DNA of 5,309 bases. Source: a virus. The position numbers and the translations under genes are program-made. The stretch spans positions 1 to 5,309 of IMG/VR virus record IMGVR_UViG_3300017783_003484. One strand, 5' to 3'. The notes beneath the pieces were generated by a model. It saw only the letters and a list, made by a program, of their open reading frames with translations, did not search any database and was not told the origin of the DNA. Below are positions 1 through 5,309 of this stretch, one piece after another. The stretch's first letter is position 1, and every line of letters starts with the position of its first letter.

Positions 1-22
1 GCTTTCATTCGTGAACATTATA
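1..22. repeat. Terminal direct repeat, left copy (circular-assembly overlap)
   Basis: GCTTTCATTCGTGAACATTATA at 1-22 is identical to 5288-5309. Confidence 0.97.
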
Positions 23-429
23 CCATGCAAATGTATACGGTCCGTTTGCCCTCCTAGTTCTGTTACTATCCAATGTCTGCAACTTTTTTTATACTTCTTT
101 CGCCATCTTTCCAGAAATCGTCTAACTGCTTTAGTCGCTATTGCGTTACAATCCTCATAATAATTTTTTGGCTCTATCAACGCTTTCAATTCGCTTAGGC
201 TTTCATCAGAAAAGCTAAACGTTATAAATTTTCCGTTCGTGTTCTCTCTTATTTCTTCTGTCAACCTTACCTGCCATTCTCTAGACTTCTTTTTTCTACA
301 TTCCATGCAATTTCCGCAACCTACAGGAACTGCCAACACCCTTTTATCTTTTAACTCGGGTATTATCCCCTTGTTTTTCTTGTTTGCTGAGTACTTCGGA
401 TTCCTTATAAGTCGCGGATATAAACACAT
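1..429 (-). CDS. VP4: Replication initiator protein (VP4/Rep, HUH rolling-circle endonuclease), N-terminal 143 codons. The gene continues across the circular junction into 5287->4778.
   Basis: This is a hand translation of the minus strand from the ATG at 429-427; it is absent from the ORF track because it runs off the window edge. Sequence: MCLYPRLIRNPKYSANKKNKGIIPELKDKRVLAVPVGCGNCMECRKKKSREWQVRLTEEIRENTNGKFITFSFSDESLSELKALIEPKNYYEDCNAIATKAVRRFLERWRKKYKKSCRHWIVTELGGQTDRIHLHGIMFTNES. An in-frame stop lies upstream at 448-450. It shows the MCxxP start, a CGxCxxC cluster (298-318), RCR motif I FITFSF (211-228) and HUH motif HLH (25-33), all typical of Microviridae VP4. The frame is continuous with ORF 4778..5305 through the 22-nt terminal duplication. 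Confidence 0.93.
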   Translation of the reverse strand, partial: MCLYPRLIRNPKYSANKKNKGIIPELKDKRVLAVPVGCGNCMECRKKKSREWQVRLTEEIRENTNGKFITFSFSDESLSELKALIEPKNYYEDCNAIATKAVRRFLERWRKKYKKSCRHWIVTELGGQTDRIHLHGIMFTNES

Positions 430-430
430 A

Positions 431-1246
431 CTACATGAACACTTTAACTACCTTTCTTAATATCTCGCTAATCGGCATCCCTTCTGCTGCCATTGCTTTC
501 ATTATTTCTCTTACCAACGGGTCACTATCTGGGTCAATTTTCGCTTTTGCCAGTTCGGCTTTATAGGCTTTAACTTCGTTGTCTGACACTGTTCCTCTTG
601 TAACTGCTTCCTGTAATAATCGTGTAATACTCTTACTTTTACTTTCATCTACTAATCCTTTTACAAATATATTTTCTCCGTTTTCTTCTGTACTTCTAGC
701 TTCCATTTCTTTGTTCGCTAGGTCGGCTTCGTTTCGCAACGTGCTTCTGGTCGTGTTCGGTTTGAAGAGTTCCTTCTCAACTATATCGGCTCTTTTCTCT
801 CTTACATCCAACGTTTTCTCTTTAGTCTGTTCTCCTTTTAATGCTACATCTGCAACTGCTTGTATCATTTGAGTTATCAATCCTATTTCCATTACGCTAT
901 TCATCGGAGCTGGTGCTCCTCCACTAGCTGCACTACCCCCGCTTCCTGCACTTGTACTTCCACCGCTTCCTGCACCTCCATACATTAATGCTGGGTTTAA
1001 CCCTGCTTCTTTCATTAGCTTCATCTGTGCGGGATAGCTTGTCTCCTTCCATTGTTGCAATGCAAGCTCCTTGCCTTGTTCGTTCAGACTCTTTTGATTC
1101 TGAAACTGCATATTCATTAAGTCCTTCTGATTCTTTAGGGCCCTCTCTTCTCGTTTCTTATTACCTATCATTCCTAGTAATCCTCCTCCTGCTCCTGCCG
1201 CAGCTCCTGCTACTCCAGACCAATTAAACTTTGTTTTATTAATCAT
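431..1246 (-). CDS. VP2: DNA pilot / minor capsid protein (VP2-like, 271 aa)
   Basis: ORF from the track. It has a Gly/Ala-rich N-terminus, a Q/K/E-rich predicted coiled segment, and the AGLNPALMY motif (980-1006) followed by a Gly/Ser/Ala linker (905-979). I recognise this layout from gokushovirus and Alpavirinae VP2 pilot proteins. The TAG stop at 431-433 lies 1 nt from the Rep ATG (minus strand ATG TAG T ATG). Confidence 0.85.
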   Translation of the reverse strand: MINKTKFNWSGVAGAAAGAGGGLLGMIGNKKREERALKNQKDLMNMQFQNQKSLNEQGKELALQQWKETSYPAQMKLMKEAGLNPALMYGGAGSGGSTSAGSGGSAASGGAPAPMNSVMEIGLITQMIQAVADVALKGEQTKEKTLDVREKRADIVEKELFKPNTTRSTLRNEADLANKEMEARSTEENGENIFVKGLVDESKSKSITRLLQEAVTRGTVSDNEVKAYKAELAKAKIDPDSDPLVREIMKAMAAEGMPISEILRKVVKVFM

Positions 1247-1277
1247 TTTATTTATTTAAATGTTAAACTCCTTTTCG

Positions 1278-1301
1278 CGCTTGTTTACAAGCGATTTTTT
1301 T
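1278..1301. promoter_or_regulatory. Perfect hairpin CGCTTGT-TT-ACAAGCG followed on the plus strand by A+T7, in the VP3-like/VP2 spacer
   Basis: Read directly: 1278-1284 is the reverse complement of 1287-1293, which is effectively a 6-bp stem with a TTTA loop. A T7 run lies at 1295-1301. With that T-run it resembles an intrinsic terminator only on the non-coding plus strand. On the coding strand an A7 tract precedes the stem. Confidence 0.4.
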
Positions 1302-1318
1302 CGTACTTGATAATTAAA

Positions 1319-1380
1319 GCTACAAGCGTACCACTACTGTCTAATAAAGGGGGAATTACCCCCCTTTACTTCCTTGTAGC
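1319..1380. repeat. Nested inverted repeats: an outer 8-bp stem, GCTACAAG (1319-1326) with CTTGTAGC (1373-1380), enclosing a 9-bp G/C-rich hairpin
   Basis: Read directly. The outer arms are exact reverse complements. The inner stem TAAAGGGGG (1345-1353) pairs with CCCCCTTTA (1360-1368) around the loop AATTAC. The word TACAAGCG also occurs as a direct repeat at 1286-1293 and 1321-1328. Confidence 0.6.
1341..1368 (-). terminator. Candidate intrinsic terminator 14 nt downstream of the 116-aa ORF stop codon
   Basis: The minus strand reads TAAAGGGGG-GTAATT-CCCCCTTTA and then TTAG. This gives a G5:C5 core stem followed by a TTTATTAG tract, in an otherwise AT-rich genome. It sits between the capsid-gene block and VP2/Rep, where attenuation would make sense by analogy with the phiX174 terminators. 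It has not been tested. Confidence 0.4.
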
Positions 1381-1382
1381 GA

Positions 1383-1733
1383 CTAAGCTCTGCTTTTCTC
1401 TTTACCACCTCCATCTAATTTAGGTGTATCTATATCGGCTTTGCCAGTCTTCTCCTCCTTCCCTACTATCTTTAAATCTGCCTTATGTTCTCTTTTTGCT
1501 GCTACACTAGCTGCAACTTTATCCATTGCATCTGTTGCAATTTCCCATCTATCAGTTCTAATATTATACGCACTTATTACTCCATCCTTTCGTTCTGAAT
1601 ATATTTCAGGCGCACCATCTTTTATAGGTTCTCCGTTATGTACGATTCGAGCTATTTTCTGCTCTATTCGTTCTCCTTCAACCTTTTCTACACTTCTAAT
1701 TTTGCTCTTACTTGGCTTATCTACTATATACAT
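1383..1733 (-). CDS. 116-aa protein in the VP3 position, putatively a scaffolding or other small structural protein; function not established
   Basis: ORF from the track. Its ATG lies 3 nt after the VP1 stop (minus strand TAA GAC ATG). The segment GEPIKDGAPEIYSERKDGVISAYNIRTDRWEIATDAMD resembles a motif I recall in small proteins encoded next to VP1 in gut microviruses. It does not resemble the Chlamydia-phage type of VP3. The C-terminus is K/E/G-rich. Confidence 0.7.
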   Translation of the reverse strand: MYIVDKPSKSKIRSVEKVEGERIEQKIARIVHNGEPIKDGAPEIYSERKDGVISAYNIRTDRWEIATDAMDKVAASVAAKREHKADLKIVGKEEKTGKADIDTPKLDGGGKEKSRA

Positions 1734-1736
1734 GTC

Positions 1737-3716
1737 TTATAAATTTGGTATTACTTTTGCGCTCATTTTTCTACGTGCTGTATTTTTAACTCCTATCTGC
1801 ATCCAATAGTTTTGGGCATCTAAACTGGTCTGGGCAAATATAAAATTGAATTTACTCGGATCTATATACGTTGTTAAATCTTCTATTCCGCTCTCTCCAA
1901 TATCATATCTTCTGTTCAATGTCATAAACATATCTTGTTCTACTTCACTGAAACGTCCATATACCTTGTTAACTGCTGTCATATAGTTTATCCAGGCAGG
2001 CTGTTTCCCTGCTGAACTAAATACTACTGAATCACTATTATCAATCGTCGTATCTTGCCATGCCATCTGGTCCGTTATTAAATCTTGATATCCTATAGCA
2101 TCTAAAGCTGGCTTGTGCAAATCATCCATCGTTGCGAGGTTCATGTCCCAGTCATTACCCTGACTATAGTCAATCCTTGGCGTTATACTTGCTATCCCTA
2201 TTATATATGATGGCTCGTCGCATTTAACCTTAATCTTTCCTCCTTTTGTTTTATCGGTCATTGCTCCTCGTCCTGCGAGAGTTCCTAATGGCTGTGTATT
2301 TCCATCTATCTCACTATCTGAATTACTTATAACTTCCTCAAACGCTAGTTCTCTTATTAAGCTTCCCATATACATTGGGCTCTCAATACTCTTACTTCTT
2401 TCTTGGGTATATACTGCATCCAACCAATCATCATAAGATCCCCCGCTTATTGCAATCCTGTTCAGCATTGTATATACTTTCATCGCTAGGTTCAAACTGT
2501 CAATCGTGAATTCATCTCCTGCCGTGCTCACTGCTGTCACCTCATTTATTCCGTTCGTCCCATCTATCCATTCTGTGCTAATCCAGTTATTAAATAAATC
2601 ACTTTGGTACGTTTTAATCCCTAATCCTTCCATCGGAAAGCTTGCGCTCATTCTCGATACTCCATCTACTGTCGCGCTTTTTCCAAACGCTCCATATGGT
2701 AGGTCACTAGAGTTATTAATTAAGAATTGGCTTTCTATTGGTGTATGCTGCAATATGCTCAATCTCATATTATCTATCACATCCAAGTTAAACTCTTCCA
2801 ATACTGGTGTTACTCCTACATTTTTAGGTAATACAGTTTGTTGTTCTACCTCCCATCTTTGGCTCCCACTACCCGTTTGTCCTGTACATGTTAGGCTTGC
2901 TTCATCTTCGTTCCATACTATTGTCGGGAATATTAAATCAAACGTTCTTGGTGTCCCGTTCTCTAACATTTCTATTAGCGTAGCATCTGGCTCGCTGGCT
3001 CCTGAACCAAAGTATAATTTTACTCCTGCTCCTGTTATACTCGCATCAATCTCGTTATCTAATAGACTTCCAATAACTTGTCCAGTACTATCTATCTTAT
3101 AGGCTTGCCCTATTTCTTCTCCTACACTATCATCATCTGTATGTATGAAGAATCCTCTTTCTTCTTGTTTATTCGCGTAGTAGTTTTTGTATATATCCCA
3201 ATATGCTAATAATGGTACTGCGTTGAATAATCTTGTCGTGAAAACGTCATCTCCTGTCGGTCTTCCAATTCCGCTTATACCTAGGTACTTTAATAAACAA
3301 CTTCCTGCAATCTGTCTATTATTTTTCAATAGTTCTTCTACTGCTTCTCCGTTGTTTCTTGCTGTTACTGCTATCTGTGGTAACTTTACATTATCCATTT
3401 CCATCCCTATACCTAGCTCATTCATGTGCAACCTTGCGTTGTACAATCTTATCGGTACTTGAAATACATCTAACTGCACTTTCATACTTCCAAATAATGG
3501 TCCTACTGTTGGTAGTGTCTTTACGTCTGCAAATAAATCTATATCGAATGAATCTCCCGGAAGTCCCAGTACTTTCATGAATGGTACTAACGTTCCTACG
3601 GCCATACTACTTCTAAAAGCGTAGCTTAGATCGTGCGTGCTTCTATTGTAATGCTTTAGGCTTATATTCTGTTTATTCCCAGACCCTAATCGGTCTCCTC
3701 CTATTGTTGTTTTCAT
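1737..3716 (-). CDS. VP1: Major capsid protein (VP1, phiX F-like jelly-roll, 659 aa)
   Basis: This is the longest ORF. The N-terminus NRSTHDLSYAFRSSMAVGTLVPFMKVLGLPGDSFDIDL...FQVPIRLYN and the C-terminus ...NYWMQIGVKNTARRKMSAKVIPNL match the conserved ends of Microviridae VP1. The size fits the long-insertion Alpavirinae-like class rather than a typical gokushovirus VP1. Confidence 0.97.
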   Translation of the reverse strand: MKTTIGGDRLGSGNKQNISLKHYNRSTHDLSYAFRSSMAVGTLVPFMKVLGLPGDSFDIDLFADVKTLPTVGPLFGSMKVQLDVFQVPIRLYNARLHMNELGIGMEMDNVKLPQIAVTARNNGEAVEELLKNNRQIAGSCLLKYLGISGIGRPTGDDVFTTRLFNAVPLLAYWDIYKNYYANKQEERGFFIHTDDDSVGEEIGQAYKIDSTGQVIGSLLDNEIDASITGAGVKLYFGSGASEPDATLIEMLENGTPRTFDLIFPTIVWNEDEASLTCTGQTGSGSQRWEVEQQTVLPKNVGVTPVLEEFNLDVIDNMRLSILQHTPIESQFLINNSSDLPYGAFGKSATVDGVSRMSASFPMEGLGIKTYQSDLFNNWISTEWIDGTNGINEVTAVSTAGDEFTIDSLNLAMKVYTMLNRIAISGGSYDDWLDAVYTQERSKSIESPMYMGSLIRELAFEEVISNSDSEIDGNTQPLGTLAGRGAMTDKTKGGKIKVKCDEPSYIIGIASITPRIDYSQGNDWDMNLATMDDLHKPALDAIGYQDLITDQMAWQDTTIDNSDSVVFSSAGKQPAWINYMTAVNKVYGRFSEVEQDMFMTLNRRYDIGESGIEDLTTYIDPSKFNFIFAQTSLDAQNYWMQIGVKNTARRKMSAKVIPNL

Positions 3717-3964
3717 TTATCTGTTTTTAAACTATCGATTAATAATATGCATACCTGCACTATTCTGTTCCAATTAATGTTTGACAATTCGTCCAACACC
3801 TCTTGTTCTGTTTTTTTTACTTCCGTTATTCGGTATTTTCCCATACCTCCGAAAAACTCTTTTTTTTCAGTATCTCCAATAACAACAAAAGGACTGTCTT
3901 TGACGTCCTTCCTTGTTATCAGTTCTGTATTACTCGAAGAGTCTTGTTTGCCTATTTTGCTCAT
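3713..3964 (-). CDS. Hypothetical 83-aa protein immediately upstream of VP1
   Basis: ORF from the track. Its TGA stop overlaps the VP1 ATG (ATGA at 3713-3716), which suggests translational coupling. No recognisable domain and no TM segment. Confidence 0.65.
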   Translation of the reverse strand: MSKIGKQDSSSNTELITRKDVKDSPFVVIGDTEKKEFFGGMGKYRITEVKKTEQEVLDELSNINWNRIVQVCILLIDSLKTDK

Positions 3965-4133
3965 ATTCTAATGTATAAATTTTTAAATAATATTTTTCTT
4001 TATCTACTGTCTTATTGCTACTTCCAACCTTAACCCAGCGTTCTCTTTCAATCCTTGACTTACTCAATAACTCCCCAGTCTCAATATCGACATGTTCTGT
4101 CTGTGTGAAGAATCTTTTTTTACTCTCCCACAT
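3930..4133 (-). CDS. Hypothetical 67-aa protein
   Basis: ORF from the track, on the same strand as all real genes. It overlaps the previous ORF by 14 nt and the next by 35 nt. It is charged and slightly basic, with no recognisable domain. Confidence 0.55.
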   Translation of the reverse strand: MWESKKRFFTQTEHVDIETGELLSKSRIERERWVKVGSSNKTVDKEKYYLKIYTLEYEQNRQTRLFE

Positions 4134-4278
4134 AATCGTCTGGTTTGACGTCTTCCCCGCCTATTTTACCATCTCCGTCTAAATCGGTCTTTAACCATCT
4201 TTCCAACGCATCTAATAATAATGCGAATAATCTTTCTAGTGCTTTTACTAGAATCTTGTCTACTAATTTTTTCATCAT
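4120..4278 (-). CDS. Unannotated 52-aa ORF: amphipathic helix plus an EF-hand-type DxDxDG loop
   Basis: Hand translation gives MMKKLVDKILVKALERLFALLLDALERWLKTDLDGDGKIGGEDVKPDDYVGE, with stop TAA at 4120-4122. Its ATG at 4278-4276 overlaps the TGA of the 115-aa ORF (ATGA, 4275-4278). The segment DLDGDGKIGGEDV (4147-4185) fits every position of the canonical EF-hand calcium-loop pattern as I remember it. It fills what would otherwise be a 141-nt gap in a tightly packed genome. Confidence 0.55.
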   Translation of the reverse strand: MMKKLVDKILVKALERLFALLLDALERWLKTDLDGDGKIGGEDVKPDDYVGE

Positions 4279-4622
4279 AAATTTTTAATATTAATAATAT
4301 AATTCGTCCCGCTATCCAGCATATTATGTAACATATTAAGGCTGTCACCTCCCAATAAAATACATCCTTTACTTTGCTCGGGTTTATCTCCAAGATGAAA
4401 TTTAATCTCTGTACGCTTATTAACTCCATATAACTCCCATAAATATTTATCAAATTTTGGGCTATATTCATACTTAACTAAATAACATCCCTCTGGACAC
4501 AAATATAACAAATTTTCAATTGTATCAAAATCGAAAACTCCTCCTTTGGTTATCAATAACTTTCCTTTAACCTTGTTTCCTTCGCTACCGTTTAAATCTC
4601 TAATCAAAAATAATTTACTCAT
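4275..4622 (-). CDS. DUF5675-like protein with a YkuD-like His/Cys signature, putatively a peptidoglycan-acting enzyme (115 aa)
   Basis: ORF from the track. The pattern G.L...F.T.EN...CPEGCY(x6)SPKF(x6)ELYGVNKRTEIKFHLGD(x6)KGCILLG matches my memory of the DUF5675 consensus (IPxGxY...SP+F...V.gR..I.IH.GN....GCI..G), a family common in Bacteroidota and their phages. His76 (4395-4397) and Gly-Cys87 (Cys at 4362-4364) are spaced as in the L,D-transpeptidase-type H...(S/x)xGC motif. There is no signal peptide. Confidence 0.75.
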   Translation of the reverse strand: MSKLFLIRDLNGSEGNKVKGKLLITKGGVFDFDTIENLLYLCPEGCYLVKYEYSPKFDKYLWELYGVNKRTEIKFHLGDKPEQSKGCILLGGDSLNMLHNMLDSGTNYIINIKNL

Positions 4623-4698
4623 CTCTATAACATATTAAAATTACTACTCCAGTCATTATCGCAAAACCTATACTTACTACTAACGATACTATTATCAT
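4615..4698 (-). CDS. Unannotated 27-aa single-pass membrane peptide, a candidate holin-like or membrane-depolarising component
   Basis: Hand translation gives MIIVSLVVSIGFAIMTGVVILICYRDE. An in-frame stop lies two codons upstream, at 4702-4704. The peptide is an unbroken hydrophobic stretch of about 23 residues with a charged RDE tail. Its last codons and its TAA overlap the start of the 115-aa ORF by 8 nt (minus strand ATGAGTAA, 4615-4622). Confidence 0.5.
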   Translation of the reverse strand: MIIVSLVVSIGFAIMTGVVILICYRDE

Positions 4699-4777
4699 AA
4701 CTTACCAAACTTTTTCCTATCTTTTTGCTTATGGCTCTGCGTGGCAACGCAAATTTATTTTCCTTATTCCCCAAATT

Positions 4778-5308
4778 TTACCTAGCGCCTTCAGCGCTCA
4801 ATAGTTCTTCTCTGCTTTTCAGGTACTCTTCTATGGTCCAATCTTCTCTCGTTCCGTACCCGAATTTCTTATTTTTCTTTCTTGCTTCTTCTAGAAGAAT
4901 CATATAGTTCTCATTGCCTTTACTTACGTCTATCTTTTTACCATCTACCCACCTTACTTGTTCGTCCAGTTTTTCTAGCCATAATTTTTCTCTTTCATCA
5001 TCATTATATATATGATTTCTATAATACTTCGGCATCCCTAATTTTAGCCCTGTCCTCGTTCTGTACACCTCATTAGTTTTACTGGTCTTATACTTATTTC
5101 GCGCAGCATCTGGTCTTTTTAAATATCCACTCCCTATACCTGCTGAAGTCAATATCTTAGTTTTATAGCCCTTATGCTTTTCGTCGGTCTTATATATATA
5201 TTTTACTATATAATTTACAGTTTTTTCGTTTACGTAATCTCCTACATATACATGACCATACTTCCATATTTCGCTAATCGTTTCGGTGCTTTCATTCGTG
5301 AACATTAT
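4778..5308 (-). CDS. VP4: Replication initiator protein (VP4/Rep), C-terminal part. The unique portion is 4778-5287; 5288-5308 duplicates 1-21.
   Basis: This is track ORF 4778..5305. Its apparent start Met (5305-5303, the same bases as 18-16) is internal, because the frame stays open to the window end and continues from 1..429. It contains the catalytic di-tyrosine motif NYIVKYIYK (YxxxY, 5189-5212) downstream of the HUH motif. The joined protein is 312 aa. Confidence 0.93.
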   Translation of the reverse strand: MMFTNESTETISEIWKYGHVYVGDYVNEKTVNYIVKYIYKTDEKHKGYKTKILTSAGIGSGYLKRPDAARNKYKTSKTNEVYRTRTGLKLGMPKYYRNHIYNDDEREKLWLEKLDEQVRWVDGKKIDVSKGNENYMILLEEARKKNKKFGYGTREDWTIEEYLKSREELLSAEGAR

Positions 5309-5309
5309 A
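5288..5309. repeat. Terminal direct repeat, right copy (circular-assembly overlap)
   Basis: An exact 22-nt copy of 1-22. The Rep reading frame is continuous across it, so the molecule is circular with a 5287-nt unit. Confidence 0.97.

Follow-up and report, generated by a model that had tools for sequence, protein, structure and literature searches.

What a single-stranded DNA phage with a genome of 5287 nucleotides (nt) does with a 115-amino-acid (115-aa) protein of the DUF5675 family is the question raised by the IMG/VR virus record IMGVR_UViG_3300017783_003484, of which positions 1 to 5309 were analysed (the whole stretch of 5309 nt, hereafter the window). Microviruses are among the most abundant single-stranded DNA phages in gut and marine samples and, to our knowledge, the way in which they lyse their hosts is largely unexplained outside phiX174. 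The window encodes a major capsid protein of the Phage_F type, and its genome is therefore that of a microvirus. From sequence comparison, structure prediction, and gene context, our best reading of the DUF5675 protein is that of a candidate endolysin, whose gene is overprinted in the +1 frame by an open reading frame (ORF) for a putative membrane partner.

The DUF5675 gene lies on the minus strand at 4275–4622 and starts with ATG. An earlier interpretation made from the nucleotide letters alone (the sequence-only reading) had quoted its protein sequence and assigned it to DUF5675; the sequence was read back from the DNA as quoted, and the assignment is firm. The protein matches Pfam DUF5675 (PF18925) with an E-value of 1.8e-13 and 50.8 bits, against a gathering cut-off of 26.7, over residues 16–103 (profile positions 10–100 of 114), and it also matches PHROG 1501 (E 3.8e-9), a family that, like DUF5675 in Pfam, has no assigned function. 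DUF5675 is its sole Pfam domain, and no peptidoglycan-binding or anchoring domain was found in it. The gene is real: the indexed database holds over 500 of its homologues, an exhaustive search gave 2264 clusters at 50% identity, and its synteny is conserved among related microviruses. The window protein is among the shortest members of the family and falls in a microvirus-specific subclade with 42–59% identity within it, while the family is also present in Vibrio, Ralstonia, and Nodularia phages.

The pair of residues to which the sequence-only reading attached a catalytic role is conserved as it had proposed. Among 120 homologues, His76 and Gly86 are kept in all, Cys87 in 119 (the one exception is a gap), and position 84 is Ser or Thr in every case. 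The motif region, His76...Ser84-Lys-Gly-Cys87, is encoded at 4362–4397 on the minus strand, with the His codon at 4395–4397 and the Cys codon at 4362–4364, and the spacing from His to Cys is fixed at 11 residues in 215 of the 216 motif-bearing members. SPKF, one of the blocks named as family hallmarks, is likewise retained, each of its positions being kept in 114–120 of the 120 homologues. The CPEGCY block fared less evenly: conservation extends to Gly45 (119/120) and Tyr47 (117/120) but to neither cysteine, since Cys42 occurs in only 7/120 and Cys46 is outside the five commonest residues at its alignment position, and in family terms the block reads xPxGxY. The window protein has all of E36, G45, Y47, S54, F57, R70, H76, G86, and C87, which are invariant or at least 90% conserved in two family alignments (A2 and A3).

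The active-site signature of YkuD enzymes consists of a His, a stretch of some 14–17 residues, and [S/T]xGC. The SKGC tetrad is identical in the window protein and in Bacillus subtilis YkuD, with a His–Cys distance of 11 against 16 residues. An AlphaFold2 model of the window protein, built from 64 sequences, reached a predicted local distance difference test (pLDDT) score of 95 and a predicted TM-score (pTM) of 0.87, and it runs through seven strands and a helix directly after the Cys to one final strand. In Foldseek searches with this model, the only PDB matches with a probability of 0.89–0.95 were the L,D-transpeptidases 8da2, 3zqd, and 6fj1, at a TM-score (TMq) of 0.46–0.54. A second model, made for the divergent member P0118 (~35% identical to the window protein; pLDDT 94.5), had the L,D-carboxypeptidase Pgp2 (6xj6) as its lone meaningful PDB match (probability 0.82, TMq 0.45). 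The Foldseek matches that ranked highest by E-value, NUDIX/ADP-ribose pyrophosphatases and RNase E, were set aside as noise (TM-score ~0.2, probability <0.25). Other annotators arrived in the same place: the window model matched viral proteins under the names 'L,D-carboxypeptidase/transpeptidase' (E 2.7e-4, TMq 0.76) and 'Endolysin' (TMq 0.67), homologues from crAss-like phages are labelled 'transpeptidase catalytic domain protein' in GenBank, and a 2026 preprint has proposed DUF5675 as 'C82-like' on structural grounds, apparently without an assay of LysPd160.

Distant members of the family supply bridges at the level of sequence. The Tlde1_dom profile (PF10908) was cross-matched by 58 of 124 distant DUF5675 members, with a best E-value of 4.5e-6, and the Pfam YkuD profile was reached at E ≤ 10 by 14 of the 124 (best E 1.7e-3), both on the catalytic region; the Tlde1_dom matches are sub-threshold, at ~14 bits against a cut-off of 30.1 in the members inspected. 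Aligned by hhalign with an alignment of B. subtilis YkuD and its homologues, the family places its conserved blocks in unchanged order, IPxGxY on TPxGEF, IHaGN on IHGTN, and SxGCIL on SxGCIR, with a His–Cys loop that is 5 residues shorter in DUF5675 than in YkuD and at a probability of only 6–27%. The YkuD alignment comprised 120 close homologues and was low in diversity (effective number of sequences, Neff, 2.4), all the homologues retrieved for it being from Bacillaceae.

Several results weigh against a relationship to YkuD enzymes. The Foldseek search of the window model against the PDB gave no match at E ≤ 0.001, and the YkuD-fold matches of the two models stand at E 0.06–0.11. The window protein itself had no YkuD or Tlde1_dom match in Pfam at E ≤ 1, although PF03734 was among the profiles that the sequence-only reading had proposed for a check. 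Neither an L,D-transpeptidase nor Tlde1 came up when PDB chains were searched with the protein sequence and with the A2 and A3 profiles, the probabilities from hhalign against B. subtilis YkuD, alone or as an alignment, were ~2–30%, with only 5.7% for the A3 alignment that places both His and Cys, and in the literature no published activity was found for any DUF5675 member. Prolyl-tRNA ligase and fatty-acid-binding proteins, which also came up in the searches of PDB chains, were discarded as chance matches. None of the tests of the YkuD link is strong in statistical terms when taken singly, and several weak but independent signals concur. Because structure, sequence bridges, profile alignment, and other annotators point the same way, we consider it partly supported that the window protein has a minimal, diverged fold of the YkuD/Tlde1 type with a His/Cys pair and would function in the manner of that superfamily, but outside PF03734. 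What remains of the original comparison with the H...SxGC site of YkuD enzymes is an invariant His...[S/T]xGC motif and a remote fold likeness, in that the only meaningful PDB fold matches are enzymes of the YkuD fold, but at TM-scores of 0.45–0.54, with weak statistics and the shorter His–Cys distance. The resemblance of DUF5675 to YkuD and C82 enzymes as such is already public, through the crAss-like annotations and the 2026 preprint.

The window protein has no signal peptide, most of its relatives are leaderless as well, and a few members carry an N-terminal membrane anchor. An enzyme without an export signal would therefore need a helper to cross the inner membrane, and a candidate is encoded within the gene itself. 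An unannotated ORF of 101 aa in the +1 frame (4166–4471, minus strand) covers codons 51–115 of the DUF5675 gene and then almost the whole of its downstream neighbour, and its product would consist of an N-terminal tail of ~36 residues, one transmembrane-like segment (residues ~37–66, encoded at 4274–4363), and a C-terminal tail rich in Lys and Arg. Both the length and the hydrophobicity of this frame exceed what the DUF5675 gene would impose on it. In shuffles preserving the DUF5675 protein and the codon usage of the genome, the longest open run in the +1 frame was 24±7 codons compared with 66–67 in the window gene (P ≤ 0.0005), the run back from the 3' end of the gene was expected to be 2.9±2.1 codons and is 66 (P = 0.0005), and the hydrophobicity peak (KD19, the Kyte-Doolittle mean over 19 residues; residues ~44–62) was 1.07±0.51 compared with 2.54 (P = 0.002).

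The same signal recurs in related viruses. In 13 of 15 non-redundant related microvirus genomes an equivalent +1 frame is open for 39–90 codons where 3–12 are expected (each P ≤ 0.003), and its hydrophobicity is above the null in 13 of the 15; the +2 frame, examined in the 15 genomes with synonymous shuffles, showed no excess openness. A hydrophobic +1 ORF might be a by-product of the AT-rich codons of a C-terminus with much Ile, Asn, and Lys, an explanation that the shuffles reject in 13 of the 15 genomes. Over the part that encodes the transmembrane segment, the frequency of T at third codon positions of the DUF5675 gene, which are the second positions of the +1 codons and specify hydrophobic residues there, rises from 0.20 to 0.41. 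The +1 ORF is absent from the gene calls of every related contig whose calls were inspected.

Immediately downstream, and translationally coupled to the DUF5675 gene by an ATG that overlaps its stop codon (ATGA), lies a gene for a 52-aa peptide (4120–4278, minus strand) that is kept in 14 of the 15 related microviruses, with peptide lengths of 42–52 aa across relatives. In it, an amphipathic helix leads into a DLDGDGKIGGED loop that conforms to the calcium-binding pattern of an EF-hand; the match of the peptide to Pfam EF-hand_1 is weak (E 0.06). In several related contigs (L031, L004/L005, and L006–L010) the transmembrane ORF and this peptide form one continuous in-frame ORF, and because the transmembrane ORF is there fused in frame to a conserved peptide, we take translation of the +1 frame to be strongly supported. 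In the window and in three other contigs (L003, L027, and L033) the +1 ORF instead runs past the DUF5675 stop codon and across the gene of the 52-aa type, where the conserved DGDG codons, read in +1, give its Arg-rich end, DRFRRRW; in the region 4166–4278 two frames are thus open on one strand, and three over a few bases.

The product of the +1 ORF shows features of the holin type (101 aa, one transmembrane segment, a basic C-terminus, and a position adjoining the putative lysin gene), and on the strength of these sequence features we propose it as a candidate holin-like membrane partner. Three observations speak against this proposal. A reduction of synonymous variation of the DUF5675 frame in the overlap was tested for and not found, which suggests that it is the character of the +1 frame, rather than its exact sequence, that is under selection. 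The transmembrane partners had no significant match to known holin families in Pfam or PHROG, the best holin PHROG match of any of them being that of the L031 homologue at E 0.071. In one of the related genomes, IMG/VR contig L011 (5709 nt; DUF5675 gene at 132–497), the enzyme is encoded without the +1 transmembrane ORF and without the EF-hand-like peptide, and this genome is both a natural control and a caveat for the holin model.

Homologues in tailed phages and bacteria are found in settings that resemble lysis cassettes. In Cellulophaga phage phi39:1, a 33-aa transmembrane protein (gp29) overlaps the start of the DUF5675 homologue gp30, which is followed by gp31 and gp32, a transmembrane protein overlapped by one whose N-terminus is signal-like; together these two look like a spanin pair. 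For the Cellulophaga phage Ingeline, whose authors recognised a spanin and no endolysin (PMC8776804), the DUF5675 homologue gp38 (at 2872–3303 in Ingeline_1, contig L037) lies between the transmembrane proteins gp35 and gp37 and the lipoprotein-like gp39; because of these neighbours and the lack of a recognised endolysin, gp38 is a good candidate for the missing lysin. A 65-aa holin-like protein with two transmembrane segments and a basic tail precedes the DUF5675 homologue on a bacterial contig (L038), and a 42-aa transmembrane ORF overlaps the 3' end of that homologue. On this 28.7-kb contig, the region 193–2909 holds the DUF5675 gene, its holin-like neighbour, and a ClpP-family protease and directly adjoins the genes for the ribosomal proteins L13, S9, and S2 and for EF-Ts; the locus looks like the edge or remnant of a prophage. 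Two Vibrio phage papers each list a protein with a transmembrane helix beside the DUF5675 ORF. Moreover, DUF5675 domains are embedded in phage proteins of 868–1251 aa, and the window model has a weaker match to a tape-measure protein (E 0.48, TMq 0.62), both of which indicate an action on the wall.

A leaderless protein, an overlapping transmembrane ORF in the window and in 13 of its 15 relatives, and these cassette-like settings together give the gene a context of the endolysin type. The acquisition of M15 peptidases as putative endolysins is already on record for microviruses (PMC3394797; PMC11499846), and beside the DUF5675 module no lysis-type gene is recognisable in the window by Pfam or PHROG matches. 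Because of the lysis cassettes of tailed phages, the M15 precedent, and the lack of another recognisable lysis gene, a role as lysin is the best-supported reading of the window protein. Of the two functions that the sequence-only reading had left side by side, lysis fits the tailed-phage context, and modification of the host wall such as editing of its 3-3 cross-links is the less likely option.

The catalysis, substrate, bond specificity, lysis role, and holin function that we infer here would combine as follows. Cys87 would serve as the nucleophile and His76 as the general base in an attack on peptidoglycan stem peptides that proceeds through an acyl-enzyme intermediate, most plausibly at the bond after the L-centre of the position-3 diamino acid, which would correspond to L,D-carboxypeptidase or L,D-endopeptidase chemistry. 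The phage would use the DUF5675 enzyme as its lysis enzyme, the holin-like +1-frame transmembrane protein would let it reach the wall when infection ends, and the translationally coupled 52-aa peptide would be part of the same lysis module. We hold the core of this proposal, stem-peptide hydrolysis by Cys87 and His76 with wall access granted by the overprinted transmembrane protein, to be slightly more probable than its opposite. The fuller version, in which a C82-like peptidase, an overprinted holin-like protein, and an EF-hand-like peptide act as a three-part module that lyses the hosts of this microvirus clade, is tentative and, taken as a whole, somewhat doubtful. One point of chemistry counts against an endolysin: an L,D-carboxypeptidase alone would leave the sacculus uncut, and a true endolysin needs endopeptidase specificity.

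Other small phages lyse their hosts through 'protein antibiotics', and the alternative closest to our proposal is that the DUF5675 enzyme poisons the wall in the manner of Tlde1, trimming tetrapeptide stems or swapping the terminal D-Ala, such that cross-linking is starved and growing cells lyse indirectly. The strongest sequence bridge of the family is indeed that to Tlde1_dom, seen in 58 of the 124 distant members, the P0118 model has the L,D-carboxypeptidase Pgp2 as its best match, and Tlde1a is toxic through these same activities (PMC9638812); indirect, growth-dependent lysis is moreover the sole established microvirus mechanism, going by the passage of PMC3394797 that cites phiX174 E. We nevertheless think this explanation unlikely, for the tailed-phage gene occupies the classical place of an endolysin, beside holin-like and spanin-like genes, and 115 aa offer little room for a capping subdomain and an exchange pocket such as Tlde1a has. 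Lysis could also fall to the +1 ORF alone, which would then block a step of wall synthesis in the way of phiX174 E and have the DUF5675 enzyme as an accessory. Like phiX174 E, as far as the latter is cited in that part of PMC3394797, the +1 ORF is small, has a single transmembrane segment, and is overprinted in the +1 frame. The enzyme is, however, more strongly conserved than the transmembrane ORF, tailed phages pair it with separate holin-like genes, and L011 keeps the enzyme where the transmembrane ORF is absent, which together make this division of labour decidedly improbable.

Editing of the wall instead of its destruction, through an L,D-transpeptidase that forms 3-3 cross-links or through the attachment or detachment of envelope proteins, would make the window protein an agent of remodelling (superinfection exclusion or outer-membrane release) and not of lysis. 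YkuD-family enzymes attach and detach Braun lipoprotein, and genuine L,D-transpeptidases are among the closest solved folds. Against this stand the lysis-cassette placement in tailed phages, the lack of an export signal and of a peptidoglycan-binding or anchoring domain in the window protein, and the little that a strictly lytic 5.3-kb phage would gain from a stronger wall; among the explanations considered here we give this one the least credence. The missing signal peptide, shared by most family members, would sit more easily with a cytoplasmic Cys-His hydrolase that targets soluble wall precursors, a host protein, or a phage protein, and with such an enzyme one would also expect the likeness to peptidoglycan enzymes to be as remote as it is and a genome such as L011 to lack a membrane partner. 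But a leaderless state is normal for endolysins that depend on a holin, a few members do have N-terminal anchors, transmembrane neighbours are consistently present, and the DUF5675 domains in phage proteins of 868–1251 aa and the tape-measure match point to the wall, so that we judge a cytoplasmic role improbable.

As to the host, outside microviruses the window protein has its nearest relatives in Cellulophaga and crAss-like phages, whose hosts are Bacteroidota, and the Bacteroidota host suggested by the sequence-only reading is in that sense plausible, if weakly supported by such sequence relationships, but the presence of the family in Vibrio, Ralstonia, and Nodularia phages makes it less than a safe guide. 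Scans of reference genomes and metagenomes with the single protein detected no prophage; their matches were limited to one partial contig, at 99% identity, and to a Chloroflexota metagenome-assembled genome, which matched weakly, and those scans therefore yield no host evidence. The partial contig (L024; JGI metagenome contig Ga0181380_1009911, 3693 nt) carries its 99%-identical copy of the DUF5675 gene at 1774–2118, probably represents the same virus population as the window, and may point to the sample of origin.

The remainder of the window is that of a compact microvirus. Its ends are redundant over 22 nt (1–22 being identical to 5288–5309), from which we conclude that the genome is complete and circular, with a length of 5287 nt. 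Every gene recognisable by Pfam or PHROG matches is on the minus strand, where the gene order is pilot protein, Rep, 49-aa ORF, DUF5675 gene, 52-, 67-, and 83-aa ORFs, capsid protein, and 116-aa ORF. The DNA pilot protein (VP2/H-like, 271 aa) is encoded at 431–1246 and matches PHROG 8689 and other pilot-protein families (best E 3e-12). The replication initiator Rep/VP4 has a full ORF of 312 aa that starts at position 429, crosses the circular junction, and ends at 4778; its N-terminal part occupies 23–429 and continues into 5309, and its C-terminal part occupies 4778–5309 and matches the replication initiation protein family PHROG 942 (E 1.5e-10), while Pfam REP_ORF2-G2P is present in related genomes. 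The major capsid protein (VP1/F-like, 659 aa; 1737–3716) matches Pfam Phage_F at E 1.2e-16 and the major head protein family PHROG 514 at E 4e-48, and it is at most 58% identical to that of any microvirus in GenBank, all of those microviruses being uncultured.

The 49-, 67-, 83-, and 116-aa ORFs have no transmembrane segment and no significant family match in Pfam or PHROG, and on these grounds they were ruled out as alternative lysis candidates. The plus strand has a high content of T and C and negative GC and AT skews over its whole length, and its ORFs, rich in Phe, Leu, and Ser, were dismissed as probable antisense artefacts, given that the family-matched genes and the shared gene order are all on the minus strand. 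Among the related genomes, one IMG/VR contig of 9558 nt (L007) has ~1.7 times the unit length of L006, L008, and L009 (5.5 kb) with the same gene set and may be an assembly concatemer.

In the literature searched, nothing was found on microviruses together with a transpeptidase, and the papers on DUF5675 were not about microviruses. The overprinted membrane partner and the EF-hand-like peptide appear to be undescribed so far, and the former would, if the proposal is true, have no described precedent as a holin overprinted within an endolysin gene. Three small genes within ~500 nt would thereby offer a concrete microvirus lysis module that is open to experiment. Should the enzyme prove active, the more than 2000 clusters (at 50% identity) of DUF5675 would constitute a defined lysin class of cysteine L,D-peptidases, with relevance to the engineering of lysins against Bacteroidota and other Gram-negative bacteria. 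The overprinted gene, in its putative function, also illustrates that standard gene calling misses functional partners in tiny genomes.

The presence of a DUF5675 gene in microviruses extends a known pattern of acquired wall peptidases. The M15_3 peptidases of other microviruses (Roux 2012, PMC3394797; Occultatumvirinae, PMC11499846) are a close case, being likewise horizontally acquired peptidoglycan peptidases of small single-stranded DNA phages with a proposed role in lysis, and their genes too adjoin a small ORF without an assigned function. They are, however, zinc metallopeptidases, whereas the window protein is a predicted Cys-His enzyme, and descriptions of the M15 cases include no overprinted membrane partner. 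Another close system is Tlde1, a single-domain, standalone variant of the YkuD fold with a Cys/His site that acts on tetrapeptide stems; experiments have shown Tlde1a to act as an L,D-carboxypeptidase and as an exchange enzyme, with toxicity in the periplasm (PMC9638812). Unlike the window protein, which lacks a Tlde1_dom match, Tlde1 is delivered by a type VI secretion system and is paired with an immunity protein and not with a holin.

The only meaningful structural neighbours are the YkuD-type enzymes of MEROPS family C82 (LdtBs, Ldtfm, the Acinetobacter baumannii L,D-transpeptidase, Pgp2, and Csd6). They have in common with the window protein the succession PxGx[YF] ... HG ... [ST]xGC[IL] and a helix and final strand after the Cys; the window protein differs from them in its TM-score of only ~0.5 and in having no LysM, peptidoglycan-binding, or Ig-like domain and no export signal. 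Overprinting, finally, has well-known precedents among lysis genes, as phiX174 E is encoded inside D and lambda Rz1 inside Rz, in both cases in the +1 frame and as small, membrane-targeted proteins. In the window, in contrast to these two, the enclosing gene would itself be the lysin, and the +1 ORF product resembles a holin rather than E or a lipoprotein spanin.

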